The translations under genes were made by a program, and so were the position numbers. The notes below the pieces were generated by a model that worked only from the letters and a program-made list of their open reading frames with translations, searched no databases and was not told the origin of the DNA. From sequence record MN850590.1: 64,000 nucleotides of DNA; one strand, written 5' to 3'. Every line of letters begins with the position of its first letter. Position 1 is the stretch's first letter. Shown piece after piece: positions 4,004 to 62,479 of this stretch. The stretch comes from Escherichia phage moha.

Positions 4004-4148
4004 ATCTCATTTCTAATATAATCCATTGGAATCTTCACTTCACTATCTCCTTGTGCCCCTCTCAAATCAAAAAAATATTTTCATAAAACAGTTTACATCC
4101 TCGATAGATATGTTAAGATTAACACCATCTACCGCAGAGGAAAATAAA

Positions 4149-4331
4149 ATGACAATTGAAGATAAAGAAATTAAGGTTGACCAGTACTATTCTGTCAATG
4201 GTAATGCCATACAGATAACCAGAGTTTCAAGCCTGGATGTTTGGTACCGTTCAATCAAATATCCAGAAATTGGTGAAATGCTTTGTGACCGTGGTATCTT
4301 CTGTTCAATTGCGAAGGAAATTAAGTCATGA
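4149..4331 (+). CDS. Hypothetical protein
   Basis: Internal ATG with AGAGGA RBS in ORF 4026-4331. Confidence 0.35.
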   Translation: MTIEDKEIKVDQYYSVNGNAIQITRVSSLDVWYRSIKYPEIGEMLCDRGIFCSIAKEIKS

Positions 4332-4583: not shown

Positions 4584-4877
4584 ATGGGTAAAACATATCG
4601 TCGTAAAGATTTGAAAGTTCGCGATTACGACTATTTTGGTAAGCGTAAAGCTCCTGACGGTGTTAGCCACAAAGACATGGTTGAAAACATCTTCCGCTCA
4701 GATAAATGGAAACGTATGAAAGGCGTTGATTCTGAAGTCAAGAATGAAATGAATCGACAACTCCGCAAAGAAGTTCGTAAGTTGAAAAAAGATGTTTACA
4801 GTAAAGAAGAGTATGATTATAATACTTCTCATACTGAAGCCAAACGTAAAGCTAACGAATGTTATCGTTACAGTTGA
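4584..4877 (+). CDS. Hypothetical basic protein
   Basis: ATG at 4584 after GAGG RBS; Lys/Arg-rich. Confidence 0.5.
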   Translation: MGKTYRRKDLKVRDYDYFGKRKAPDGVSHKDMVENIFRSDKWKRMKGVDSEVKNEMNRQLRKEVRKLKKDVYSKEEYDYNTSHTEAKRKANECYRYS

Positions 4878-5225: not shown

Positions 5226-5259
5226 ACGATAGGAAGACATGTTATTATCTTCCTATCGT
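5226..5259 (+). promoter_or_regulatory. Perfect 12-bp inverted repeat hairpin
   Basis: ACGATAGGAAGA-10 nt-TCTTCCTATCGT; loop contains TTATTA; no clear U-tract. Confidence 0.4.
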
Positions 5260-5519: not shown

Positions 5520-5555
5520 TATACAAACTCTTGAGAGATGAGTATAATTCTCTCG
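5518..5555 (+). promoter_or_regulatory. Early-type promoter with IR around the -10 (copy 1 of a duplicated 30-mer)
   Basis: GTATACAAACTCTTGAGAGATGAGTATAAT; -10 TATAAT at 5543-5548 between GAGAGA/TCTCTC arms. Confidence 0.45.
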
Positions 5556-6142: not shown

Positions 6143-6408
6143 AATTAACTCGAATCAGTATAACTGAAGAAAAGCTGGGCGAATTTTATGTTGACGAATA
6201 CATGAAAGTCACGTATTTTCCATTCGTTAAAGGTGTTGGTTTTTGGGAAACTCATGTATCTCAATTAAACGAAGGCGACTATAACGAAACACATGAGAAC
6301 TTTTTAGATTTTCTTTATAATGCCGGTCTTACTGAGCTTTATATCGATATCCATGAGTTCAAACGTTTAATGGAAAAAGTGTTTCAGGCTTATTGTTTGC
6401 TCCGATAG
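6139..6408 (+). CDS. Hypothetical protein
   Basis: 89-aa ORF, overlapping stop/start. Confidence 0.5.
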   Translation: MKLTRISITEEKLGEFYVDEYMKVTYFPFVKGVGFWETHVSQLNEGDYNETHENFLDFLYNAGLTELYIDIHEFKRLMEKVFQAYCLLR

Positions 6409-6415
6409 TATCTCG

Positions 6416-6459
6416 TGCTTTAAGATAGGTCTCTAAATATTATGATATAATAGACCTAT
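6416..6459 (+). promoter_or_regulatory. Promoter-like element upstream of gene 55
   Basis: TGCTTTA at 6416-6422, TATAAT at 6446-6451 inside 8-bp IR ATAGGTCT/AGACCTAT. Confidence 0.35.
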
Positions 6460-6480
6460 GAATTGAGCCAAGAGGTACTT

Positions 6481-7038
6481 ATGACTGAACAAAAACCTAA
6501 AAATAACTATGTGAATAATAAAGAGCTTCTCGCCGCTATAATCGAGTGGAAAAAGGAGCTCTTAAATAATAAAGACCCAAACAAAATTATTCGTCAGAAT
6601 GATACCATCGGTTTAGCAATTATGCTTATCGCCGAAGGCCTGTCCAAACGTTTCAACTTTTCAGGATATACCCAGTCTTGGAAGCAGGAGATGATTGCAG
6701 ATGGGATTGAAGCCTCTATTAAGGGACTTCATAATTTCGACGAAACTAAGTACAATAACCCACATGCATACATAACTCGAGCTTGTTTTAATGCTTTTGT
6801 CCAACGTATCAAAAAAGAACGTAAGGAAGTTGCAAAGAAATATAGTTACTTCGTTCATAATGTCTACGACAGTCATGACGATGATATGGTAGCGTTGGTA
6901 GATGAAACGTTTATTCAAGACATCTACGATAAAATGACGCATTATGAAGAATCCGCTTATAAAGCTCCTGGGGCTGAAAAGAAGGAAGTTGTTAGCGATT
7001 CGCCTAGTTTGGATTTTTTATATGAGGATGACAATTGA
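6481..7038 (+). CDS. 55: Late-transcription sigma factor gp55
   Basis: Near-identity to T4 gp55 as I recall it ([58 protein letters not shown]); ATG 6481 with AGAGG RBS. Confidence 0.9.
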
Positions 7039-7782: not shown

Positions 7783-7956
7783 ATGACGAACATCCCGACT
7801 TCTGAAAATTTCGATAAAATCCGTAAAGGCAAAGCAGAAAGAATGAGACGTTTTAAAGAGTCTTATGATAAAGCTAAAGCCGAAGGAACTATTACGTACA
7901 AGCCCATTCGATTTAAAAGTTCAAATGAGCCTCTGTACGGTGTACTATGTGGATAG
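7783..7956 (+). CDS. Hypothetical small protein (57 aa, below ORF-track cutoff)
   Basis: ATG 7783 after GAGAGGTG; stop directly followed by strong terminator. Confidence 0.3.
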   Translation: MTNIPTSENFDKIRKGKAERMRRFKESYDKAKAEGTITYKPIRFKSSNEPLYGVLCG

Positions 7957-7981
7957 GAACTCTTCGGAGTTCCTTTTTTGC
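7957..7981 (+). terminator. Intrinsic terminator
   Basis: GGAACTC-TTCG-GAGTTCC followed by TTTTTT. Confidence 0.8.
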
Positions 7982-17418: not shown

Positions 17419-18054
17419 ATGAAAACTACTCCTATTACTATCGCTATTGACGCAATCGTAAAACAAGCTTCTTCTTTGGCTACTATGGCCAAAGTAATTA
17501 GTCAAAACCCTGCTCGTTATAATGCTATTCTAGAAACTCTTCGACGCCCAGGACTTAGCAATTATGAAAGCCGAGTAATTATTACAGGTGTTGGTAAGAA
17601 TGCTAATATTGCAACTAAAGCTTCTGAGACATTTGCTTCACTCGGTATCCCAAGTATGTACTTGAACACCGGGCATTATTCTCACGGTGATGCAGGATTC
17701 ATTGCGCCTAATGATGTGTTGATTCATATTAGTCGTTCTGGTAAGACCGAAGAAATGATAGGTGTTGCTAAACATCTTCGTATGATTCGTCCGAACGTCA
17801 AACAGATTCTGTTGCATTGTAACCCAGACATTCCACAAGAAAATGAAGCCCTTTTTGATTACTCTTTCTGTACAGGCATCGCAGTAGAGGTTGACGAGAA
17901 CTCTTTAGCTCCGACTATGTCTACTACATTGTTGTTAGCGCTTATCGATACGTTTGCTATCAACCTTTCGTCTGAGCGTGGATTTACCTCTAATGACTTC
18001 CTTAAGTTCCACCCTGGTGGTGCACTAGGTGCCATGTTACGAGGCGAACAATGA
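17419..18054 (+). CDS. SIS-domain sugar-phosphate isomerase (KdsD/GutQ-like arabinose-5-phosphate isomerase, no CBS domains)
   Basis: ITGVGKNANIA, HISRSGKTEE, LAPTMSTT, HPGGALG blocks co-linear with KdsD SIS domain. Confidence 0.8.
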   Translation: MKTTPITIAIDAIVKQASSLATMAKVISQNPARYNAILETLRRPGLSNYESRVIITGVGKNANIATKASETFASLGIPSMYLNTGHYSHGDAGFIAPNDVLIHISRSGKTEEMIGVAKHLRMIRPNVKQILLHCNPDIPQENEALFDYSFCTGIAVEVDENSLAPTMSTTLLLALIDTFAINLSSERGFTSNDFLKFHPGGALGAMLRGEQ

Positions 18055-18194
18055 AAGCAATAACAATAGGACTTTTACTATTGATGCTTGTCATGACTAT
18101 CTACTGGAGCTTAACAGCTCCAGTAATGATTCCAACACTTGTAATTGGATGGATTATGATTGGACTACAAGCAAAGTATGAATGCTTTAACTAG
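18051..18194 (+). CDS. Hypothetical 47-aa hydrophobic peptide
   Basis: ATGA overlap with SIS gene stop; hydrophobic throughout; below ORF-track cutoff. Confidence 0.25.
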   Translation: MKAITIGLLLLMLVMTIYWSLTAPVMIPTLVIGWIMIGLQAKYECFN

Positions 18195-25582: not shown

Positions 25583-27025
25583 GTGGTAGAAATTATTTTG
25601 TCTCATCTAGTATACGACCAGGCTTATTTTTCTAAGGTCTGGCCTTATATGGATTCTGAGTATTTTGAGCGTGGACCGGCAAAAAACGTCTTTAAAATTA
25701 TAAAGAGCCACGTTAACGAATATAATGCAATGCCATCTATCAATGCATTAAAGGTGGCTTTAGATAACAGTTCTTTAACTGAAGCCGAATATAAAGGAAC
25801 TTCAGACCTAATTGAAAAATTGGCTGATACTCCTGAAGACCACGAATGGTTGGTTAAAGAAACTGAGAAATATGTCCAGCAAAAAGCGATGTATAATGCT
25901 ACATCCAAAATCATTGAGATTCAGTCTAATGCTGAACTACCTCCAGAACAACGTAACAAGAAAATGCCTGATGTAGGAGCTATTCCTGATATTATGCGTC
26001 AAGCACTTTCAATTTCGTTTGATAGTTATGTTGGACATGACTGGATGGAAGACTACGAAGCACGCTGGCTTTCTTATCTAAATAAAGCACGTAAGGTCCC
26101 GTTCAAATTAAACATTCTGAATAAAATCACTAAAGGTGGTGCTGAAACCGGTACACTGAATGTTTTAATGGCCGGTGTTAACGTTGGTAAATCTTTAGGC
26201 CTTTGTTCACTTGCTGCAGATTATCTTCAAACAGGTCATAATGTTCTTTATATTTCTATGGAAATGGCTGAAGAAGTTTGTGCTAAGCGTATAGATGCAA
26301 ACATGCTTGACGTATCACTCGATGATATCGATGATGGTAACGTATCTTATGCTGAATATAAAGCCAAGATGGAAAAATGGCGTTCAAAATCCACATTAGG
26401 ACGTTTAGTAGTTAAACAGTATCCTACTGGTGGAGCTAACGCTAATACATTTCGTGCATTGCTTAATGAGTTAAAACTTAAGAAGAACTTTGTGCCATCT
26501 GTAATCATGGTTGATTACTTAGGTATTTGTGGGTCTTGTCGTATCAGAGTTTACACTGAAAATAGCTACACATTAGTTAAAGCTATTGCAGAAGAACTTC
26601 GTGCATTAGCAGTAGAATCTGAAACAGTTCTATGGACTGCAGCTCAAGTAGGACGTGCAGCATGGGATGCTTCAGACATGAACATGAGTGATATCGCAGA
26701 ATCAGCAGGTTTACCAGCAACGGCAGATTTCATGTTGGCCGTAATTGAAACCGAAGAACTTGCACAAGCTGAACAACAACTTATCAAACAAATAAAATCA
26801 CGATATGGTGATAAGAATAAGTGGAATAAATTCCTGATGGGTGTACGTAAAGGCAATCAGAAATGGGTTGAGATTGAGCAAGAAGGCATGAACACACCTA
26901 ACACAGTAAATGAAAACGCAGGTGCTCAGATGCGTCAGGCAGAGGTGAATCGTACGGAACGCGTAGGTAAAGCCAAAGCAACACGTGCTGACCTAGATAG
27001 CTTAGCCAACGAGTTAAAATTTTAA
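25583..27025 (+). CDS. 41: Replicative DNA helicase gp41 (DnaB-like)
   Basis: Walker A GVNVGKSLG, RecA-fold C-terminal domain; GTG start after TAAGGAG. Confidence 0.9.
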   Translation: MVEIILSHLVYDQAYFSKVWPYMDSEYFERGPAKNVFKIIKSHVNEYNAMPSINALKVALDNSSLTEAEYKGTSDLIEKLADTPEDHEWLVKETEKYVQQKAMYNATSKIIEIQSNAELPPEQRNKKMPDVGAIPDIMRQALSISFDSYVGHDWMEDYEARWLSYLNKARKVPFKLNILNKITKGGAETGTLNVLMAGVNVGKSLGLCSLAADYLQTGHNVLYISMEMAEEVCAKRIDANMLDVSLDDIDDGNVSYAEYKAKMEKWRSKSTLGRLVVKQYPTGGANANTFRALLNELKLKKNFVPSVIMVDYLGICGSCRIRVYTENSYTLVKAIAEELRALAVESETVLWTAAQVGRAAWDASDMNMSDIAESAGLPATADFMLAVIETEELAQAEQQLIKQIKSRYGDKNKWNKFLMGVRKGNQKWVEIEQEGMNTPNTVNENAGAQMRQAEVNRTERVGKAKATRADLDSLANELKF

Positions 27026-27030
27026 TAAAA

Positions 27031-27052
27031 AGGAGACTTCGGTCTCCTTTCG
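27031..27052 (+). terminator. Intrinsic terminator after gene 41
   Basis: GGAGAC-TTCG-GTCTCC followed by TTTCGTGGTTT. Confidence 0.65.
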
Positions 27053-27054
27053 TG

Positions 27055-27084
27055 GTTTACATCTTCCTCTAGGCATGATATGAT
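27055..27084 (+). promoter_or_regulatory. Early-type promoter
   Basis: -35 GTTTAC (27055-27060), -10 TATGAT. Confidence 0.45.
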
Positions 27085-27113
27085 GTACTTACACAAACCA
27101 AGAGGAAAACATT

Positions 27114-27488
27114 ATGAATATGTCTCAAGCAATTTTTACTGCAATCACCGAAAACACAACTGTTGAAGTAGTTTCTCCACTGGCAACCTACGTTATTCTT
27201 GCTCCTAAAACTATTGTATCTCGTATGGAAAACACAGGCAAACGTATCGTACAAATAGTTGGAGCTGGAAATCAAAAACTTGATTATCTACGAACCATCA
27301 AAGCTTACGAACATTTCCAACTCGAAAAAGGTTCTCCTATCCAGGTAGAACTCGTAAATGGTGATATCGTTCGAGCAATGTTCCATCATTTCTATGCATT
27401 GAATGACCCATCTAAAGCGGTTCGTTTAATTGCATACGACGCAAACCAAAACGAAATCAACGCAGATGTATCTAAATTACGTTTTTAA
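27114..27488 (+). CDS. Hypothetical protein
   Basis: 124-aa ORF. Confidence 0.5.
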   Translation: MNMSQAIFTAITENTTVEVVSPLATYVILAPKTIVSRMENTGKRIVQIVGAGNQKLDYLRTIKAYEHFQLEKGSPIQVELVNGDIVRAMFHHFYALNDPSKAVRLIAYDANQNEINADVSKLRF

Positions 27489-27536
27489 GTTTACTTCTCC
27501 AGTAGTTGTGTTATTATAGATCTATCAACTACTGGA
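27488..27536 (+). promoter_or_regulatory. Early-type promoter embedded in 12-bp inverted repeat that includes the downstream SD
   Basis: -35 GTTTAC 27488-27493, -10 TATTAT 27511-27516; arms CTCCAGTAGTTG (27496-27507) and CAACTACTGGAG (27525-27536). Confidence 0.55.
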
Positions 27537-27543
27537 GAACAAA

Positions 27544-27861
27544 ATGAAAACCATCGATTGTAAAGCAGAATTTAAGATTTTTTATCAAGGTTCAAGTAGT
27601 TCAGCTAACATCGAAAACATGCTTTGTCCTCCTGAAGAAACAGGAGTTCTGTCTGAAACTGGACGTAAGAAAAACTTGGATCGTGTATTCTTTACTGAAG
27701 ATATCGGTTTAGCAAAGATTTATGCAGGACGAGCAGCACGCTCTTATGGAGGTGAACCACGTCTCTATCGAGTAATTTCTCCGGTAGATGTAGTTCAAAT
27801 GAATGATACTAAAGGCGCTACAGTTTATCACGCTGAATGGGCCTTTTGCGAGGAAATATGA
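27544..27861 (+). CDS. Hypothetical protein
   Basis: 105-aa ORF with GGAG RBS. Confidence 0.5.
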   Translation: MKTIDCKAEFKIFYQGSSSSANIENMLCPPEETGVLSETGRKKNLDRVFFTEDIGLAKIYAGRAARSYGGEPRLYRVISPVDVVQMNDTKGATVYHAEWAFCEEI

Positions 27862-28049
27862 GCAAATTAACTAAAGTTACTTTTATCGGTTGGTTTAAAA
27901 GCGGTGAGATGTTCACTAAAGATATGATGTTATCAGGTGATCGCGAAGAAATCGAGTGGGTTACGGTACAACTTGCTGAAGTAAACAAAACATTAGTTAA
28001 AGCATTTATTAATGACGAGAAAGTTTTTGAAGCTGATTTCAGAGGATAA
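27858..28049 (+). CDS. Hypothetical protein
   Basis: ATG 27858 after GAGG, overlapping upstream stop. Confidence 0.4.
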   Translation: MSKLTKVTFIGWFKSGEMFTKDMMLSGDREEIEWVTVQLAEVNKTLVKAFINDEKVFEADFRG

Positions 28050-28050
28050 T

Positions 28051-28263
28051 ATGTATTCAACTGTGTTTAAACCATCAACATATGAATTTGCATCAACTAC
28101 ACAATGGAAAGCTCTTATTCTGGAAGGATGGGAACTAATGATGGACTGTGAAGCATCTGAAAAGTTTCCACACGGCAAAGTGGACTTCGTTAAATTTGCT
28201 GTACGTCCGACTAAACGACAGATTCGTCAAGAAAAACGCAAATTTCGAAAAAGTTTAAAATAG
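28051..28263 (+). CDS. Hypothetical protein
   Basis: ATG 28051 after AGAGGA. Confidence 0.4.
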   Translation: MYSTVFKPSTYEFASTTQWKALILEGWELMMDCEASEKFPHGKVDFVKFAVRPTKRQIRQEKRKFRKSLK

Positions 28264-28265
28264 CC

Positions 28266-28295
28266 GTTTACAAGCACCACATACTGTGTTACTAT
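28266..28295 (+). promoter_or_regulatory. Early-type promoter
   Basis: -35 GTTTAC, -10 TACTAT. Confidence 0.45.
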
Positions 28296-28323
28296 CTTTC
28301 TATCAACTACAGAGGAAATTGAA

Positions 28324-28692
28324 ATGAAAAAATTAATCGCTTTAGCAATGGTATTTGGATTAACCGGATGTGGTGCCCATGGCTTTATCCCTAATAATGT
28401 CGGCCAATTGATTTACAATCCTAATGTTAAACAATATGAACAACCTAAAGTTGAAGTGGAAGACCCGGTTACTGTAGGTAATCGAATGATTCAAGCTGAT
28501 GCCCATGCTCAACGTTATCGTGACTCTGATACTGTAGCATTGTCAAAAGAACAACGCGTTAAAGAACATTGCTTACAGGCTACTGAAATCGCATTCATTC
28601 GCTATGTTGAAACAACTGGCAAAGAGCCTACCCAGAAACAAATCGCGAATAACTACGTCCAGTGTATTGAACGTTTAAACAAATTTAATTAA
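28324..28692 (+). CDS. Predicted lipoprotein
   Basis: Signal peptide with lipobox LTGC. Confidence 0.55.
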   Translation: MKKLIALAMVFGLTGCGAHGFIPNNVGQLIYNPNVKQYEQPKVEVEDPVTVGNRMIQADAHAQRYRDSDTVALSKEQRVKEHCLQATEIAFIRYVETTGKEPTQKQIANNYVQCIERLNKFN

Positions 28693-28695
28693 TTG

Positions 28696-28725
28696 GTTTA
28701 CACCAAAGTTAAAACAAGATACTAT
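28696..28725 (+). promoter_or_regulatory. Early-type promoter
   Basis: -35 GTTTAC, -10 TACTAT. Confidence 0.45.
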
Positions 28726-28753
28726 AAACATAACAAATCAAGAGGAAATTAAC

Positions 28754-29002
28754 ATGGAATTATTCGTAGCTAGTTCAGTAGCAGTTTTAATCGCAGGTAT
28801 TGGTTCAATCATCATTTACATGTTGCCTTGGGTAATCGCACTTATTCGTGGCACAAAAAGCACAACAGCAATCTTCTTTGTATCTTTACTCTTTAACTGG
28901 ACGATGATTGGTTGGATTGGAACTTTAATTTGGTCTATCGTTGCCGAAAAGAAATCTGCTCAGCAGCCTCAACAAGTAATTATTATTCGCGAAAAAGAAT
29001 AA
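28754..29002 (+). CDS. Small two-helix membrane protein (superinfection-immunity Imm-like candidate)
   Basis: 82 aa, two hydrophobic helices (LPWVIALIRG...NWTMIGWIGTLIW). Confidence 0.4.
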   Translation: MELFVASSVAVLIAGIGSIIIYMLPWVIALIRGTKSTTAIFFVSLLFNWTMIGWIGTLIWSIVAEKKSAQQPQQVIIIREKE

Positions 29003-29006
29003 ACTT

Positions 29007-29041
29007 GTTTACATTATAGATGGACTATAGTATAGTAGTCC
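29007..29041 (+). promoter_or_regulatory. Early-type promoter with short IR
   Basis: -35 GTTTAC 29007-29012, -10 TATAGT; GGACTA/TAGTCC arms. Confidence 0.45.
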
Positions 29042-29065
29042 TATCAAATCAACTAAGGAGTTAAA

Positions 29066-29359
29066 ATGAAAAAGTTATCATTGGCAGCAATCTTACTTGC
29101 AGTATCATGTGCACCGGCTCCAGTTACGGCAGGTTATGATAAAGACCTCTGTGAGTGGTCAATGACTGCAAATCAAGAAGATGTTGAACAACAAATCTTC
29201 TCTGATATCATGAACATCACTAAACGAGACCGTCCTAATATGGTTAATAAAGTTGTTGAACAACTTAAGTCTGGCGGTGTCATGCAGTACAACTATGTTT
29301 TGTATTGTGACCCTAATTTCGATAACAAAGATATCGTAACCGAAATCACAGGTGAATAA
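29066..29359 (+). CDS. sp: Periplasmic Spackle-like protein
   Basis: 97 aa with signal peptide; GYDKDLCEWSMTA and GGVMQYNYVLYCD blocks match T4 Spackle as recalled; located between 41 and 61. Confidence 0.6.
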   Translation: MKKLSLAAILLAVSCAPAPVTAGYDKDLCEWSMTANQEDVEQQIFSDIMNITKRDRPNMVNKVVEQLKSGGVMQYNYVLYCDPNFDNKDIVTEITGE

Positions 29360-29360
29360 T

Positions 29361-30011
29361 ATGATTTATTATATGCACAAAAATGCGCCATTTAAATATG
29401 GTAAATTTCCTAATGCACAATGTTATAATATAACGCCGAATGAAAATAATAACGGATACCATCTCGGTGTAATTTTTGTAATTGTTAAAGATAACGAAAT
29501 CGTTGCCTGGGCAGATTTTAAAGGTACAACATATGATGTTAATCCTGTGCCTTTCACATATTACAATATAATGGATTTGGCATATGATTATAATTGGTTT
29601 AATCATGACACGTTGGCTCATATTGAAGGTGTAGGATTTGACATCTCTTATTCTAGCTATTCATTATGTCCTATGAGCCGAGCTCACGGTAAAGATGTAT
29701 CATATCTTTCAATTCGGAAACGTGTAAACTTCAAACGTAGTACAGAGTATGTTGGTGGACTCTTTGTTAAAGATAATAAAATAACCCGTATTAGTTATCC
29801 TCTAAGTGTAGGCCAAAAAGATGTTGATGTTGATTTGGACTTAACTGAAAATAACATTAATCGTATTGCTTCTGTATATTTTGATATCGATGAAAAAATT
29901 GTAGTGTGTGGATATGAATTACCACCTGAAGAAAAGGCTGAAGCAATTGAAGTCGAATTAGAAATTTCTGTTGATGACCAAATATTTAATGCATTTATGA
30001 ATCGAGGTTAA
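29361..30011 (+). CDS. Hypothetical protein
   Basis: ATG 29361 after upstream stop. Confidence 0.5.
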   Translation: MIYYMHKNAPFKYGKFPNAQCYNITPNENNNGYHLGVIFVIVKDNEIVAWADFKGTTYDVNPVPFTYYNIMDLAYDYNWFNHDTLAHIEGVGFDISYSSYSLCPMSRAHGKDVSYLSIRKRVNFKRSTEYVGGLFVKDNKITRISYPLSVGQKDVDVDLDLTENNINRIASVYFDIDEKIVVCGYELPPEEKAEAIEVELEISVDDQIFNAFMNRG

Positions 30012-32736: not shown

Positions 32737-32950
32737 TTTTTATGCATGGCAAAAAGCCGGGAGACCGGCTAATAAAGCATTCGGCTCTGATGGATATAAT
32801 ACTAGACTCCACTGGAAATTTAATACTCCAGATGATTATTCTCCGGTAATAATTAACGGTGATGTTGTTATATTAGCTAAATTCGGATATTTTATTGTCC
32901 CGAAGAAATTCATTATAAATACACCTGTAATTAAACAACAAAGGAGTTAA
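32726..32950 (+). CDS. Hypothetical protein
   Basis: Internal ATG in ORF 32612-32950. Confidence 0.35.
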   Translation: MKLDFYAWQKAGRPANKAFGSDGYNTRLHWKFNTPDDYSPVIINGDVVILAKFGYFIVPKKFIINTPVIKQQRS

Positions 32951-32952
32951 TT

Positions 32953-33189
32953 ATGGGTGGTTATGTAAACATCAAAACCTTTACGCATCCTGCTGGTGAA
33001 GGTAAAGAAGTTAAAGGTATGGAAGTTTCTGTGCCGTTTGAGATTTATTCAAACGAACATCGGATTGCAGATTCTCATTATCAGACCTTTCCTTCTGAAA
33101 AGGCGGCATATTCTACTGTAGTTTCTGATGCAGCTGACTGGAAAACTAAGAATGCTGCAATGTTTACCCCTACACCAGTAAGTGGTTAA
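32953..33189 (+). CDS. Hypothetical protein
   Basis: 78-aa ORF with AGGAG RBS; terminator follows. Confidence 0.5.
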   Translation: MGGYVNIKTFTHPAGEGKEVKGMEVSVPFEIYSNEHRIADSHYQTFPSEKAAYSTVVSDAADWKTKNAAMFTPTPVSG

Positions 33190-33198
33190 ATAATTTAA

Positions 33199-33224
33199 GG
33201 AATCCTTCGGGATTCCTTTTTTTT
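33199..33224 (+). terminator. Intrinsic terminator
   Basis: GGAATCC-TTCG-GGATTCC followed by TTTTTTTT. Confidence 0.8.
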
Positions 33225-34715: not shown

Positions 34716-34743
34716 TTTACATTCCCTCCTCTCGTGTTATGAT
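34715..34743 (+). promoter_or_regulatory. Early-type promoter upstream of ModB-like gene
   Basis: -35 GTTTAC 34715-34720, 17-bp spacer, -10 TATGAT. Confidence 0.45.
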
Positions 34744-34770
34744 AGGCTTATCTTTAAATGGAGGTCTATC

Positions 34771-35352
34771 ATGACATGTCAATCTGAACTTCAAGAACGT
34801 GAATACCTAACAAATCTGATTGATAGCAAATTCACCCGCCAAGAACAAAACATTCTCTGGGCTTGCACCGATTCTAAGGAAGACCCGGATTTCCACTATG
34901 AATTAGACCATCTTGTTCGTAAGCATATGACTTCTACAGTACCAGTAGAACTCTACCGTGGTGTAACTCCAGAAGAAGTAGAACGTCTTTCACTTCTTTC
35001 TGTTGGATGCCATTGGTCTCCTGGACGAGTAACATCGTTCACAACTGATTTCAGTACAGCTCGTCAATTCTCTGGGAGATGGGAATATCAGACGTACACT
35101 ATTCTTAGTCTCAGGAATGCTCCATTCATTTTTGATTACTACCAAAACATGATTAACATTGTACTCGCCGGAAAGAACCCTAAGCATGTTATGGAAGAAA
35201 AGCGTGTTGACGTCTTAGATATGATTGAATCCGAACAAGAGTACATGGTCTCAGGTATCTCTAGATTTGAGATTGTGGAAATTGAAGACTTAGAATATGA
35301 CCCTTTATCTCGATTATACAAAATCATTCATTTGAAAATGTTGAATTTTTAG
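34771..35352 (+). CDS. ADP-ribosyltransferase-like protein (ModB-like, paralog 1)
   Basis: R-S-E pattern: LYRG, S/T-rich block FTTDFSTA, acidic EQEYMV; paralogous to next gene. Confidence 0.55.
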   Translation: MTCQSELQEREYLTNLIDSKFTRQEQNILWACTDSKEDPDFHYELDHLVRKHMTSTVPVELYRGVTPEEVERLSLLSVGCHWSPGRVTSFTTDFSTARQFSGRWEYQTYTILSLRNAPFIFDYYQNMINIVLAGKNPKHVMEEKRVDVLDMIESEQEYMVSGISRFEIVEIEDLEYDPLSRLYKIIHLKMLNF

Positions 35353-39235: not shown

Positions 39236-39265
39236 GTTTACAACCAAGGATGGTTGGAGTATAAT
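39236..39265 (+). promoter_or_regulatory. Early-type promoter (copy 1 of duplicated unit)
   Basis: -35 GTTTAC, -10 TATAAT; CCAAGGATGGTTGGAGTATAATG. Confidence 0.5.
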
Positions 39266-39793: not shown

Positions 39794-39823
39794 TTGTACA
39801 TCCAAGGATGGATGGAGTATAGT
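39794..39823 (+). promoter_or_regulatory. Early-type promoter (copy 2 of duplicated unit)
   Basis: CCAAGGATGGATGGAGTATAGTG nearly identical to 39242-39264. Confidence 0.45.
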
Positions 39824-39851: not shown

Positions 39852-40316
39852 ATGATTACTATTGGTGAAATTAAGCGTGTATCGACAGCGTCTCGTTCTA
39901 AAGCTGCAGGAAAGCTGGTTGAAGTAGTAGGACTTCGTACTAATGGCATGGGCCGTATTAAAGAAGTTAAAGTTCGAATCATTCCTAGTTCTGGAAAAAC
40001 TGAAACTCAGTTCGCCTATGTAAGTCCTAAATTCTTGGAAACTCGTGTAAGTGCCCACTTTGCTTCAAGCGATATCGTTGAGCCTACTACACAGTTCAAA
40101 TGGGCCTTATGTAAAGGTGTTGAATTCCAGACTGATAAAGAATTTGACTTCATCGATGAATACGGTTATCCAAGCAAAACTGATACTATGTGTGGCTTCA
40201 TTAGCGACCAATGGGTTGAAGATGGTAAAAAGCTATACAATATTGTATTCTTAGGTGACTTCCGAGTTGTTGAAGAATCTGAAATCACTCGCTATGTGTC
40301 TCCTCGTAAAGCTTAA
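39852..40316 (+). CDS. Hypothetical protein, tandem paralog family member B
   Basis: ASRSKAAGKLVEV and FISDQWVEDGKKLYNIVFLGDFRVV blocks. Confidence 0.5.
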   Translation: MITIGEIKRVSTASRSKAAGKLVEVVGLRTNGMGRIKEVKVRIIPSSGKTETQFAYVSPKFLETRVSAHFASSDIVEPTTQFKWALCKGVEFQTDKEFDFIDEYGYPSKTDTMCGFISDQWVEDGKKLYNIVFLGDFRVVEESEITRYVSPRKA

Positions 40317-40749: not shown

Positions 40750-40798
40750 GTTTACTTCTCCTCTGGTTTTGATATTATAACCATATCAACCAGAGGAG
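40750..40798 (+). promoter_or_regulatory. Early-type promoter embedded in 11-bp inverted repeat that includes the downstream SD
   Basis: -35 GTTTAC 40750-40755, -10 TATTAT 40773-40778; arms CTCCTCTGGTT (40758-40768) and AACCAGAGGAG (40788-40798). Confidence 0.55.
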
Positions 40799-40804
40799 AA
40801 TAAT

Positions 40805-41329
40805 ATGTTAGTTTACCGCGTAGAACGTAGTTTTTGTACTCAACGTGAATCATTACCCGGAATTGCTATCGAAGACGGTAAAGCCGTCAGAATTTGGGAA
40901 ACCTCTTGGAATAAAGAACCTCGCTCGCCGTACGGTTGGTCGGGTACCGACAACTCTGAAGAAACATGGGAGTTCCTTGATAAACACGGAATACTCTCAG
41001 GTAACTTCTACCATCACGGCGACAACTATAATGTCCCTAATCGTCCTACAGTAAATGAAGACAAACTCCTTGAACAAAATATCTTAAGATACTATAGAAT
41101 TGAGCACACATTTGAATTGAGTGAAGATTGGGCTCAAGGGTTCTATTTTGGATTTGAAAGTGTTGACGCGGTTTATACATGGTTTGATGACCAGGTGGAT
41201 GTTGAACTCTTGAAAGCTAAAGGATACTACATCGCGGTCTATGAAGCACCTGATTTCATACTCGGAAGTTGTCAATTAATGTTCAGACGTTCATTAGCAG
41301 AACAAGTTGATTTTATTTTGCTAAAATGA
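40805..41329 (+). CDS. Hypothetical protein
   Basis: 174-aa ORF with GAGGAG RBS. Confidence 0.5.
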   Translation: MLVYRVERSFCTQRESLPGIAIEDGKAVRIWETSWNKEPRSPYGWSGTDNSEETWEFLDKHGILSGNFYHHGDNYNVPNRPTVNEDKLLEQNILRYYRIEHTFELSEDWAQGFYFGFESVDAVYTWFDDQVDVELLKAKGYYIAVYEAPDFILGSCQLMFRRSLAEQVDFILLK

Positions 41330-41386
41330 TGTACAACAACTATGGTCTATGATACTATAGACCTATCAAAACAAGAGGAGAATATT

Positions 41387-42208: not shown

Positions 42209-42631
42209 ATGGCTTTTAAAGGTTTTGAAGTTGGTAAGAAATATCGTATTATTAAAGGACAGGAAGATAATTTCTTGAGAATTCTTAATACGACTGGTAA
42301 ACGTCTTAACACTACTCTGCATACAGTTTTATTATCAAGAGATTTTATTGTAGAAGAGATGATTGGTTATGGTGTTTCAATGATTGCCGCTGAAACCGAT
42401 GGACCTGGACGTACAATCATTAGTATGCAAGGTGATATTCTAATTTACGGTGCAGAATTTAAATTCTTTGAAGAAGTTCCTGAATCAGATACAGCCGTAG
42501 ATTTCAAAAAAGGCTCTATAGAATTTGTTGATGGTTCGGTGATCGTATCAGGTGATGTGGTCATTACAGTTAAAAGTGAACAAGGGCGTTTGGCTGCAAT
42601 TGATGCACTTCAGAAAATTAAATTTAAATAA
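42209..42631 (+). CDS. Hypothetical protein
   Basis: 140-aa ORF; terminator follows. Confidence 0.5.
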   Translation: MAFKGFEVGKKYRIIKGQEDNFLRILNTTGKRLNTTLHTVLLSRDFIVEEMIGYGVSMIAAETDGPGRTIISMQGDILIYGAEFKFFEEVPESDTAVDFKKGSIEFVDGSVIVSGDVVITVKSEQGRLAAIDALQKIKFK

Positions 42632-42648
42632 GGGCTTCGGCCCTTTTT
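42632..42648 (+). terminator. Intrinsic terminator
   Basis: GGGC-TTCG-GCCC followed by TTTTT. Confidence 0.7.
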
Positions 42649-49136: not shown

Positions 49137-49159
49137 GGGGACTTCGGTCCCCTTTTTTC
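49137..49159 (+). terminator. Intrinsic terminator after rIIB
   Basis: GGGGAC-TTCG-GTCCCC followed by TTTTTTC. Confidence 0.8.
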
Positions 49160-49965: not shown

Positions 49966-50001
49966 GTTTACAACTAAGTAGGACTATGATATATTAGTCC
50001 T
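49966..50001 (+). promoter_or_regulatory. Early-type promoter with IR
   Basis: -35 GTTTAC 49966-49971; AGGACTA/TAGTCCT arms flank the -10 region. Confidence 0.45.
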
Positions 50002-50021
50002 ATCTAAAAGAGGATAACATC

Positions 50022-50474: not shown

Positions 50475-50512
50475 GTTTACATCACGGTAGGATTATGGTA
50501 TAGTAGTCCTAC
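50475..50512 (+). promoter_or_regulatory. Early-type promoter with IR
   Basis: -35 GTTTAC 50475-50480, -10 TATAGT; GTAGGA/TCCTAC arms. Confidence 0.45.
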
Positions 50513-50532
50513 TGAAACATGAGGAACACAAA

Positions 50533-50737: not shown

Positions 50738-50771
50738 GTACAAACTCTTGAGAGCAGAGTATAATGCTCTC
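50738..50771 (+). promoter_or_regulatory. Early-type promoter with IR (copy 2 of duplicated 30-mer)
   Basis: TGTACAAACTCTTGAGAGCAGAGTATAAT; -10 TATAAT 50760-50765 between GAGAGCA/TGCTCTC arms. Confidence 0.45.
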
Positions 50772-50809
50772 ATGGATTACAAAAACATTAATCAATTGAG
50801 GAAATTAGC

Positions 50810-61289: not shown

Positions 61290-61313
61290 AGTTGTCTCCT
61301 TATATGTATACCA

Positions 61314-61321
61314 TATTTATA
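61314..61321 (-). promoter_or_regulatory. T4-type late promoter for gene 36
   Basis: TATAAATA on - strand about 25 nt upstream of gene 36 ATG with AAGGAGA RBS. Confidence 0.6.
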
Positions 61322-61346
61322 CAAAAATGGGAGACCGAAGTCTCCC
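61319..61346 (-). terminator. Intrinsic terminator after gene 35
   Basis: GGGAGAC-UUCG-GUCUCCC followed by AUUUUUGU on - strand RNA. Confidence 0.6.
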
Positions 61347-61351
61347 TAAAT

Positions 61352-62479
61352 TTATTCTGATGCTTCTTTAAATTCTTGTCCAAATACCTTACCAGTATCA
61401 GTTGAAGATTGAGTAGGTAGTGTCATTATGTCTGGGGCACTTAAAGATTCTGAAACATAATTTACACGAATACCATTTATACCAAACTCCGCAGGTTTTG
61501 AAACGCTTCCATTGCATGATACTTCAGTTAATATAACGTTTCTTAATCCACCTTGCCCGACTGGAGCTGTACGATAACAATAAATCGTGAACCCGTCAGC
61601 ACCAGCAGGAATTTCTATGTAGTCTTCATATATCTTCCATTCACCTGCGGCCCCATCAAAGTTTGTATCCTTAAATGAAATAGGTGAAGTAGAAGGAGAT
61701 TTAAAGAAACGAATAGAAAGTCGTGTCGTCCCTTGTGCTAACAAATCGGCATCTGCCATTAGTTGGAATTTCATATAAAGGAAATCTCCAGGCTTCAATT
61801 TATACCCAGCGAGAGGTGTAATAATGGACGGTGTAGGCATCCTTTTAATTTCATTATTAGTACCTCCAACGGCAGATAAAAATGTGTCTGACGATTCATA
61901 CGTACGACTAGGGAAGCCGGTAGCACCAATATCATCTATAGTGTCGTACACAACATCAAGTGGTGTACTATAGTCGGTTGAAGTTTTCTTATTACTATAC
62001 TTAATATGTTCTAGTGCTATAGCATTCTTACCAGAAATATAAAATGCAGAATAAGAAATGTCCACTATATTTAAAACTTGTTGAGCTAATGGAATAACAG
62101 AACTCCCAGCTTTAGTAAACCATGTGAGAACTTCTGGTGGAAAGTTTGTTTTAGAGTTAGTAACAAGAGCAAATATAAAATTTGAAGCATATGTGTCCAT
62201 GTAAGTAACAAATGCACTTGACGTGGCGTCGTTTTCAGTAGAGAAATTATATGTCTTAGATTCAACTACTGCACCCGTTGTAGGATTTATTACACGAACG
62301 TTTAATCCAACGGAAAAAACCTGGGACCCAAGTGGATTATCCTGGAACTTAATATAAGCAGGAGATGTTGATAGCGGACAAGAGCCCGCTATGCTTAATT
62401 TAAATCGTACTGAATTGCTTTCCGATAAAAATGGCGTTTGGACGTATCCTTGTCCAAACTTAGCCATAAATTTTTCCAT
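61352..62479 (-). CDS. 35: Long tail fibre hinge protein gp35
   Basis: 375 aa, position between 34 and 36. Confidence 0.8.
   Translation of the reverse strand: MEKFMAKFGQGYVQTPFLSESNSVRFKLSIAGSCPLSTSPAYIKFQDNPLGSQVFSVGLNVRVINPTTGAVVESKTYNFSTENDATSSAFVTYMDTYASNFIFALVTNSKTNFPPEVLTWFTKAGSSVIPLAQQVLNIVDISYSAFYISGKNAIALEHIKYSNKKTSTDYSTPLDVVYDTIDDIGATGFPSRTYESSDTFLSAVGGTNNEIKRMPTPSIITPLAGYKLKPGDFLYMKFQLMADADLLAQGTTRLSIRFFKSPSTSPISFKDTNFDGAAGEWKIYEDYIEIPAGADGFTIYCYRTAPVGQGGLRNVILTEVSCNGSVSKPAEFGINGIRVNYVSESLSAPDIMTLPTQSSTDTGKVFGQEFKEASE

Follow-up and report, generated by a model that had tools for sequence, protein, structure and literature searches.

Two described systems come closest to the element considered here. 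The first is the PeSL (promoter-early stem-loop) cassette, reported in RB49/phi1 (Arbiol et al. 2010, PMC2839356) and extended to T4/PST and KVP40/nt-1 (Comeau et al. 2014, PMC4122927). In PMC2839356 its stem-loops fall into five positional classes, most often "between -35 and -10" or "overlapping the -10 box"; one RB49 stem-loop, placed ahead of lacZ in a reporter, reduces expression to the same degree as rrnB T1, and neighbouring PeSLs recombine. The second is the promoter-selective hairpin that sequesters the translation initiation region (TIR) of T4 e, soc, 49 and I-TevI, and also of mobE and segB (Uzan & Miller 2010, PMC3014915). There, RNA started upstream pairs the Shine-Dalgarno sequence (SD) and/or the AUG; a promoter sits within the 5' strand or directly behind it, so that the gene's own transcript does not carry that strand and is translated. 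Here we describe inverted repeats that straddle the -10 box of early promoters in a 64,000-nucleotide stretch of Escherichia phage moha (MN850590.1), hereafter the window, with the promoter of the open reading frame (ORF) ORF040c, at 27490, as the focal site. The PeSL architecture and the T4 e/soc/49-type masking are known; what is new is masking with early promoters. We consider it probable, with some reserve, that the repeats are the Mosigvirus version of PeSL-type promoter/stem-loop elements, split into a class S that masks the TIR and a class N that leaves it unaffected.

A sequence-only reading of the window knew of no description of such promoter-dependent translation for this many early genes. 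The arrangement as such had already been published in the PeSL papers. The early-promoter version of TIR masking, on the other hand, was not found described in the reviews and literature searched, older subscription literature lying outside that search.

By its sequence, the window is that of an RB69-like (Mosigvirus) T4-type phage, with positions 26500-29500 being 98-99% identical to RB69-like Mosigvirus phages (megablast). It is the reverse strand relative to RB69 NC_004928, and its + strand is the direction of early transcription. The gene order is nrdD, 55, 43, uvsX, 41, dmd, 61, modB/modA, dda, motB, 39 and rIIA/B, continuing with ndd, 52, motA and the tail-fibre genes. We chose 21 intergenic promoters by hand, plus one at 4795, and these match exactly the early promoters predicted for this region of RB69 with a hidden Markov model (Nolan et al. 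2006), so the promoter set is independent of the repeats. GenBank record AF158101 has no promoter features annotated. The +1 positions were derived from sigma-70 spacing and from Nolan's model, which terminates at the predicted start A.

A common layout had been claimed for ten sites, and we observed an inverted repeat at every one. The -35 box is GTTTAC or TGTACA, the 5' arm lies in the spacer between -35 and -10, the TAnnnT hexamer is in the loop and sometimes extends partly into an arm, and the 3' arm starts from the hexamer or just past it. As for their being early promoters, nine of the ten are in Nolan's RB69 early list; the site at 6425 is not early. Some stems are longer than first given: the focal one, described as 12 bp (27496-27536), has 14 bp (27495-27508 / 27526-27539), and the one at 40758, described as 11 bp, has 13 bp (40756-40768 / 40788-40800). 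The repeat at 50487 is corrected to 9 bp with one U.G pair, and that at 41344 to 7 bp.

These repeats are genuine, far above chance and general in T4-type phages. The measure used was the longest run of perfect complementarity that the spacer forms with the 30 nt following the -10 box. In the window, 10 of 21 promoters have at least 6 bp across the -10, when spacer shuffling gives 1.85 (maximum 6 of 2000) and cross-pair permutation expects 4.9 (P=0.005). The RB69 set comprised 44 of Nolan's 58 predicted early promoters, and complements of at least 6, 7, 8 and 10 bp were observed at 19, 16, 11 and 5 of these, compared with 5.0, 1.3, 0.34 and 0.02 after shuffling and 9.1, 3.4, 1.9 and 0.3 after cross-pairing (maxima 17, 9, 6 and 3, so that the observed counts were never reached in 1000 trials). 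Among 87 non-redundant predicted promoters, from the window and 50 IMG/VR T4-like loci, 32 have at least 6 bp and 9 have at least 8 bp, versus about 10 and about 1 in both controls. The cross-pair control is conservative, because paralogous promoters have arms in common.

The promoters whose repeats reach the TIR, two of which (modB and the gp55.6-like ORF) were absent from the sequence-only reading, are the following.

27489..27494, + strand: -35 box GTTTAC of the ORF040c promoter (RB69 Pe:20537)
27495..27508, + strand: ORF040c 5' arm TTCTCCAGTAGTTG, filling the promoter spacer and opening with the anti-SD TTCTCC
27512..27517, + strand: ORF040c -10 box TATTAT, within a 17-nt loop; predicted start A27524
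27526..27539, + strand: ORF040c 3' arm CAACTACTGGAGAA, holding the SD GGAG (27534-27537); ATG at 27544
40750..40800, + strand: motB.2 promoter and mask; GTTTAC 40750-40755, -10 box TATTAT 40773-40778, ATG at 40805
40756-40768 and 40788-40800, + strand: motB.2 5' arm TTCTCCTCTGGTT and 3' arm AACCAGAGGAGAA, the latter including the SD
34716..34778, + strand: modB promoter and mask; -35 box 34716-34721, SD GGAGG 34760-34764
34733-34748, + strand: modB 5' strand CGTGTTATGATAGGCT, including the -10 box (34738-34743)
34763-34778, + strand: modB 3' strand GGTCTATCATGACATG, including the ATG (34771)
6407..6479, + strand: gene 55 leader, nested; outer helix 6407-6414 / 6472-6479 pairs the SD AGAGG, ATG at 6481
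6417-6420 / 6465-6468, + strand: middle helix of the gene 55 leader
6425-6432 / 6452-6459, + strand: inner helix of the gene 55 leader, ATAGGTCT / AGACCTAT, the one site first listed for this leader
6443-6451, + strand: gene 55 TGnTATAAT, in the loop
4092..4151, + strand: promoter of the gp55.6-like ORF (RB69 Pe:43945); -35 box 4092-4097, ATG at 4149
4098-4102 / 4137-4141, + strand: mask of the gp55.6-like ORF, anti-SD TCCTC and SD GAGGA with inner helices between

For each promoter we calculated the free energy needed to make the stretch from SD to AUG single-stranded, in read-through RNA and in RNA from the predicted +1. Opening costs more in read-through RNA by +10.5 kcal/mol at 27490 (ORF040c), +13.5 kcal/mol at 40751 (motB.2), +13.1 kcal/mol at 34716 (modB), where the -10 box itself is in the 5' strand and pairs the AUG region, and +8.4 kcal/mol at 4092 (gp55.6-like), whose RB69 counterpart differs by 8.1. 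The difference of +4.7 kcal/mol at 49967/49980 (ORF270c) is due to other upstream pairing. At 5226, 5533, 29022, 41344, 50487 and 50750 it is -0.7 to +1.3 kcal/mol, and all remaining window promoters are at or below +3.2 kcal/mol. When the 78 + strand genes are ranked by TIR opening cost, modB (18.0), motB.2 (14.9), ORF040c (14.4) and 55 (13.2) are the top four, soc (9.8) is seventh and the 4149 ORF (9.5) eighth, with a median of 4.8 kcal/mol. The read-through RNA of ORF040c folds at -24.7 kcal/mol (z -3.99) and its own transcript has z -0.46; the corresponding z values are -5.34 and +0.90 for motB.2, and -3.18 and +1.21 for a third pair. All three own transcripts are thus unstructured.

Across the RB69 genome, the difference is at least 7.8 kcal/mol at 7 of 41 early promoters (17%), those of motB.2, modB, regB, ORF040c, denV, gp55.6 and mobD.2a, and at most 4.9 at the other 34. 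When the upstream sequence is shuffled or swapped as a control, 2-3% of cases attain 7.8 kcal/mol. SD masking is a distinct minority class, of about one promoter in six and including the focal site, and is not general to the ten sites.

The claim that each transcript from an embedded promoter lacks the upstream arm holds geometrically at every site, as the 5' arm sits upstream of the -10 box and such RNA cannot carry it. The placement of the SD in the distal arm as something frequent was overstated, since this is direct at 2 of the 10 sites, with 6425 added indirectly through its outer helix. Sequestration of the SD in read-through RNA is borne out at 27490, at 40751 and, by the outer helix, at gene 55, and fails at the seven other listed sites; the comparison of read-through with promoter-proximal folds, proposed as a check, gives strong masking for a minority only. 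Translation set by the promoter of origin is supported for the masked subset, by folding and conservation, and not for most of the ten. In its full version, with all ten or more hairpins acting as SD-sequestering switches, the idea has hardly any probability left: the geometry is common to all sites and masking is strong at 27490 and 40751, but the SD lies beyond the 3' arm at the six sites with differences near zero, 34 of the 41 RB69 promoters show a difference of 4.9 kcal/mol or less, and folding already contradicts it.

The masked promoters resemble the T4 e type in part. Pairing of SD or AUG is found at 27490, 40751, 34716, 4092 and 55 and is absent at seven others, and the 5' strand lies upstream of the predicted +1, with a mapped start only for T4 P55. 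The promoters differ. In T4 e and I-TevI they are late (TATAAATA, gp55), and translation is delayed to the late period (PMC3014915), whereas the window masks embed an early sigma-70 promoter of the form GTTTAC-N17-TAnnnT, or TGnTATAAT in the case of 55, which is a middle promoter. The predicted effect is the mirror image of that in T4 e and I-TevI. The known T4 arrangement with a late promoter is present in the window at soc (32900-32960, ATG 32953), where a late-promoter-like TATAAATA precedes the 5' strand of a 13-bp helix that buries the start codon; this arrangement was used as a positive control.

Orthologous loci were gathered by protein query. Single motB.2 or modB proteins gave 3 each and a Dda alignment 7, with gp55 and motB.2 alignments performing better. 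ORF040c itself (27544-27861), directly upstream of dmd, has homologues 54-99% identical in 50 T4-like viral contigs from genomes of 160-235 kb. Pfam has no family for ORF040c, motB.2, modB, the 4149 ORF or ORF041c, and Rfam gave zero matches at or above the gathering score across the whole window.

In T4, the opening costs are 16.0 for modB, 15.1 for motB.2, 15.7 for 55, 18.2 for regB and 12.4 kcal/mol for denV, and the regB mask has 15 bp, two G.U included. The T4 and RB69 mask stems differ in sequence except for the anti-SD/SD core. For regB and denV the anti-SD strand directly follows GTTTAC in both phages, again with stems of different sequence, at these positions.

RB69 61305-61376 and 64863-64934: regB and denV
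T4 62740: regB; T4 65355: denV

The motB.2 TIR is masked in five lineages, at 15-20 kcal/mol, by three pairing solutions. RB69-like phages use TTCTCCTCTGGTT/AACCAGAGGAGAA, JS98-like phages use TTCTCCTCATG/CATGAGGAGAA, and T4 has a 17-bp stem; in the third solution, found in two further lineages, a 5' strand made of the -10 box and discriminator pairs the region from SD to AUG. This last case shows that the selected property is pairing of the TIR by the strand upstream of the start, and not the position of the -10 box in a loop.

In the gene 55 leader alignment we found G-C / G.U / A-U and U-A / C-G exchanges, with covariation of 0.246 versus 0.178 when shuffled (0/500 as high) and 0.03-0.12 when partners are slid by 1-3 columns. 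Twelve anti-SD promoters were brought into register manually, with the ends of GTTTAC and of the SD block as anchors. Their paired cells amount to 80.4% versus 66.1%, double changes to 25 versus 10.8 and covariation to 0.398 versus 0.175, each with 0/500 shuffles as high.

Such results bear on a reading without function, where the repeats are by-products of promoter-cassette duplication and of templated quasi-palindrome correction during replication. Paralogous promoter families do dominate the list, and between the perfect 14-bp stem at 27495 and its JS98-like orthologue both arms have changed in concert. Covariation across separate genera, the different pairing solutions for one gene and the enrichment above cross-pair controls stand against it, and we give it a minimal chance.

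The length of the mask varies at the focal gene. Where ORF040c orthologues directly follow the terminator of gene 41, no more than 5-6 bp are kept (TCTCC/GGAGA; one lineage has TCCTC/GAGGA), and RB69-like phages, where ORF041c is inserted upstream without a terminator, have 11-14 bp. An inverse relation between upstream terminator and stem length fits these orthologues and is not clean by eye across the RB69 promoters, and we do not claim it.

Gene 55 is the only case with a measured start. Its site at 6425 is in neither the early nor the middle list of Nolan, has TGnTATAAT and is orthologous to the T4 middle promoter P55, whose start is mapped at 40180 (Hinton review, Table 1). This start falls 7 nt after TATAAT, where the 3' arm ends, which means that transcription begins within the repeat. 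It is the sole experimental start-site evidence found; a literature search for T4 start-site mapping by RNA-seq returned nothing relevant. Every gene 55 leader has kept a perfect MotA-box-like TGCTTTAA (6416-6424 in the window). To act on the mapped P55 start it would have to lie about 9 nt further downstream; it may serve a second start, or its conservation may reflect its place in the middle helix.

Gene 55 is also where translational coupling has to be weighed. Under coupling, the TIR would stay closed until a ribosome finishing the upstream ORF melts the hairpin, and read-through RNA would be translated in step. The outer helix of gene 55 overlaps the upstream stop codon (6406-6408), which makes coupling plausible there, and in T4 the 55.1 stop codon is inside the -10 box, so that ribosomes cross all the 5' strands. 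At 27490 the 5' arm begins 6 nt past the upstream stop codon. A terminating ribosome covers roughly 10 nt. At 27490 it would open no more than about 4 of the 14 bp, a marginal case, and the distances from stop to arm at 40751 (11 nt), modB (17 nt) and 4092 (more than 100 nt) make coupling implausible for these. As a general account we regard it as quite unlikely.

We now return to the preferred division in two classes and to its second class. Class N consists of 5226, 5533, 29022, 41344, 49980, 50487 and 50750, with stems of 6-12 bp, loops of 6-10 nt and the 3' arm at -7..+5.

5226..5259, + strand: 12-bp repeat ACGATAGGAAGA/TCTTCCTATCGT around the -10 box TATTAT (5243-5248), SD uninvolved
5532..5555, + strand: 6-7 bp repeat GAGAGA/TCTCTC around TATAAT; promoter family shared with 50737 and T4 motB
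29022..29041, + strand: sp promoter, 6-bp repeat GGACTA/TAGTCC around TATAGT
41344..41363, + strand: cef promoter, 7-bp repeat GGTCTAT/ATAGACC around TACTAT
49978..50003, + strand: ORF270c promoter, 8-9 bp repeat TAGGACTA/TAGTCCTA around TATATT
50485..50514, + strand: ndd.1 promoter, 9-bp repeat GTAGGATTA/TAGTCCTAC with one U.G pair, around TATAGT
50749..50772, + strand: ndd promoter, 8-bp repeat TGAGAGCA/TGCTCTCA around TATAAT

At six of these (all but 49980) the hairpin stops at -2..+5 and the SD, 10-25 nt downstream, is untouched. Orthologous sp promoters carry GGACTA/TAGTCC, GGTCTAT/ATAGACC or GGGATAA/TTATCCC, and the family TACAAACTCTT-stem-GAGTATAAT-stem has GAGAGA/TCTCTC, TGAGAGCA/TGCTCTCA or GGGACCA/TGGTCCC as arms. 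Among RB69 promoters, AGTCC discriminators pair with GGACT spacers and AGACC with GGTCT, with zero discordant cases. Judging from sequence, the class N hairpins are selected structures. For a role as structural insulators, which would keep the TIR open to an equal degree in either RNA, medians of about 0.9 vs 2.0 kcal/mol were noted by eye, and we make no claim of it.

Imperfections within the stems bear on whether the helix is one of RNA or DNA. Internal G.U and A.C pairs occur at 5:1 in a systematic count, compared with 1.75:1.9 in cross-paired controls, and further G.U or U.G pairs were seen by eye in sp orthologues, T4 55, T4 regB and RB69 69254/72936, with a single A.C at RB69 76459. Though the numbers are small, the excess of G.U speaks more for a helix in sense-strand RNA than for a cruciform in DNA or a site bound by protein. 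It bears on a DNA-level reading, in which a cruciform or palindromic operator modulates promoter melting or is the target of a factor responsible for early-promoter shut-off. The -10 box lies at the centre of the repeat, many copies have the same arms (TAGGACTA), and the early-promoter shut-off mechanism is itself unexplained. Still, arms are wholly different between families (GAGAGA, GGGACC, ACGATAGGAAGA, TTCTCCAGTAGTTG), which excludes a single protein site, loops of 6-19 nt with stems of 6-8 bp extrude poorly, and the motB.2 and modB masks can take the -10 box itself as an arm. We find the DNA-level reading very improbable, and an operator for a single protein was rejected on the unrelated arms.

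Terminators are the other hairpins of these gaps, and some hairpin is present in almost every intergenic gap of at least 39 nt. The canonical ones were found as follows.

27029-27050, 33197-33218, 7955-7974, 42630-42645 and 49137-49152: canonical tetraloop hairpins with T-runs

Their places are immediately ahead of a -35 box (27029-27050, 33197-33218) or promoterless intergenic gaps. Both kinds of hairpin occupy the promoter-bearing gap. However, the intrinsic terminators ahead of early promoters have G+C-rich stems, UUCG-type tetraloops and a T-run, and sit upstream of -35, whereas the repeats that straddle the -10 box have loops of 6-19 nt and no T-run. At the sites examined the stems are followed by CAAAATG, TAATATG, TATCAAA, CTTAAAA or GTTGGAT, with no T-run, and a terminator scan of the + strand left them unflagged while flagging true terminators nearby. 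By these sequence criteria, intrinsic termination was rejected for them.

The likeness to PeSLs covers the series of parts: AT-rich sequence upstream, then a strong early promoter of sigma-70 type, a stem-loop, an SD and an ATG. It extends to the many repeated copies beside small ORFs that mark sites of cassette exchange. At 9 of the 10 sites the intergenic region holds a strong early promoter like those of sigma-70 (-35, about 17 bp, -10), the stem-loop is within or abutting the promoter, with spacer-internal stems and upstream terminators present too, and the sequence pattern also agrees, e.g. aaaagaataaacttgTTTACA ... aaggagttaaaATG. Gain or loss of a small ORF by cassette exchange has one clear case, at the focal site. 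Relatives without ORF041c (27114-27488) have a single promoter, which follows the gene 41 terminator; its left half resembles P27056 and its right half P27490. ORF041c looks like a cassette inserted within one ancestral promoter (window 27026-27545). The T4 denV and JS98-like ORF040c promoters are near-identical (GTTTACATCTCCTGTAGG..GATACTATAGACCTATCAACT) and precede unrelated genes, which suggests that promoter cassettes move.

There are differences as well. Most RB49 stems (GGGGATC...GATCCCC) are entirely in the spacer, while most in the window straddle the -10 box, although direct inspection of RB49 ORF198 and ORF204 places the -10 in or partly in the loop. The published function is that of a terminator/attenuator and recombination site, RB69 and Mosigvirus are not analysed there, and masking of SD or AUG by a promoter-proximal strand goes unmentioned in the accessible parts of PMC2839356 and PMC4122927. 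In a further reading the repeats are PeSLs only, that is, terminators or attenuators and homology patches for modular recombination, with the overlap of the SD incidental. The lacZ effect and the recombination reported for RB49 (PMC2839356) speak for it, as do the apparent insertion of ORF041c by promoter-to-promoter exchange, the near-identical cassettes before unrelated genes and the hairpins in almost all window gaps. Against this, the stems that flank the -10 have no T-run and go unflagged as terminators, an incidental overlap leaves unexplained that the top three masked TIRs of 78 share the layout, and motB.2, regB, denV, modB and 55 retain the mask across genera despite different sequences. 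We judge it unlikely, though it is the best of the alternatives.

The PeSL-type reading with two classes can be put as a mechanism. Where a gap measures some 60 nt, constraint would apply to the UP element, -35, -10, 5' untranslated region and SD alike. With gaps this short, the spacer and the 6-nt discriminator would be among the few stretches free of promoter and translation signals and would remain for a stem. A hairpin built from these two necessarily has the -10 box in its loop, and the layout most likely follows from genome compaction. The hairpin would be a sense-strand RNA structure, present only in transcripts started further upstream. In class S, which takes in roughly one promoter in six, an anti-SD or anti-AUG strand lying upstream of the start would pair the TIR; candidate members are ORF040c, motB.2, modB, the gp55.6-like ORF and 55 (middle promoter) in the window, with regB, denV and mobD.2a among those elsewhere in RB69 and T4. 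With the TIR paired, read-through RNA would be translated poorly, and the RegB nuclease could not reach its GGAG. In RNA started at the gene's own promoter the TIR would be open, which would confine translation to the minutes when that promoter fires; such gating in vivo is our inference from the folds. In class N the hairpin would end at about +1 and leave the TIR unaffected, acting by attenuation or by protecting the 3' end of the upstream cistron, and the cassette may double as a recombination site.

Several points weigh against this reading. Many promoters are paralogous (e.g. the TAGGACTAT...ATAGTCCTA family), so the sites do not stand for separate events and the numbers come out too high, which the cross-pair control corrects only partly. 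The starts in this phage and in RB69 are predicted from spacing and Nolan's model. Thermodynamic folds disregard ribosomes, helicases and co-transcriptional kinetics, the register of the anti-SD alignment was set by hand, and the G.U and A.C counts are small. Long perfect arms could come from templated quasi-palindrome correction without selection. The sole experimental terminator test of a PeSL in the literature used a G/C-rich RB49 stem of a different layout. Lastly, the role of class N is inferred, with punctuation of read-through RNA as the most likely one.

A broader proposal is that the T-even early-promoter spacer serves as an anti-SD strand in a general "promoter-of-origin" gate for regB, modB, motB.2, denV, ORF040c and 55. 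This we hold tentatively, leaning somewhat against it. If true, gated genes would be translated, and cleavable by RegB at GGAG, only on RNA from their own promoter, and on read-through or middle-mode RNA they would be neither read nor cut. The strictly immediate-early expression of toxic enzymes would then have a structural basis, and it would be partly explained why RegB inactivates early transcripts and not middle or late ones with the same GGAG. RegB targets GGAG in early SDs and RNA structure shields GGAG from it (review); the masked SDs are likewise GGAG or GGAGG. We found no published link between early-promoter spacers and RegB resistance, and the connection is ours. RegB also cuts the GGAG of its own SD, and the hairpin of the long transcript would hide the regB GGAG.

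If the class S masks work as computed, they would add a layer of temporal control in the best-studied lytic phage family. The promoter of an mRNA would decide whether a cistron is read, turning genes off after the first minutes and not on late. Regulators and potentially harmful enzymes are among the products of the gated genes: RegB (an RNase), ModB (an ADP-ribosyltransferase), endonuclease V and gp55, the late sigma factor. PeSL cassettes would then carry their own translational insulation when they move, beyond the promoter, terminator and recombination role. For annotation and engineering, deletion or swap of an early promoter can unmask or mask the downstream ribosome-binding site.

Finally, some minor observations were made elsewhere in the window. 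A 47-aa ORF at 18051-18194 (RB69ORF054c-like, "42-imm intercistronic region") has a strongly paired SD (12.7 kcal/mol) and no promoter nearby. One of Nolan's predicted early promoters, at 4795-4835 (RB69 Pe:43242), is placed right where an ORF begins (ATG 4792), and a 7-bp inverted repeat, AGTATGA/TCATACT, spans its TATAAT. Promoters P39237 and P39795 each have a 6-bp hairpin entirely in the spacer (39241-39256, CAACCAaggaTGGTTG; 39799-39814, CATCCAaggaTGGATG).

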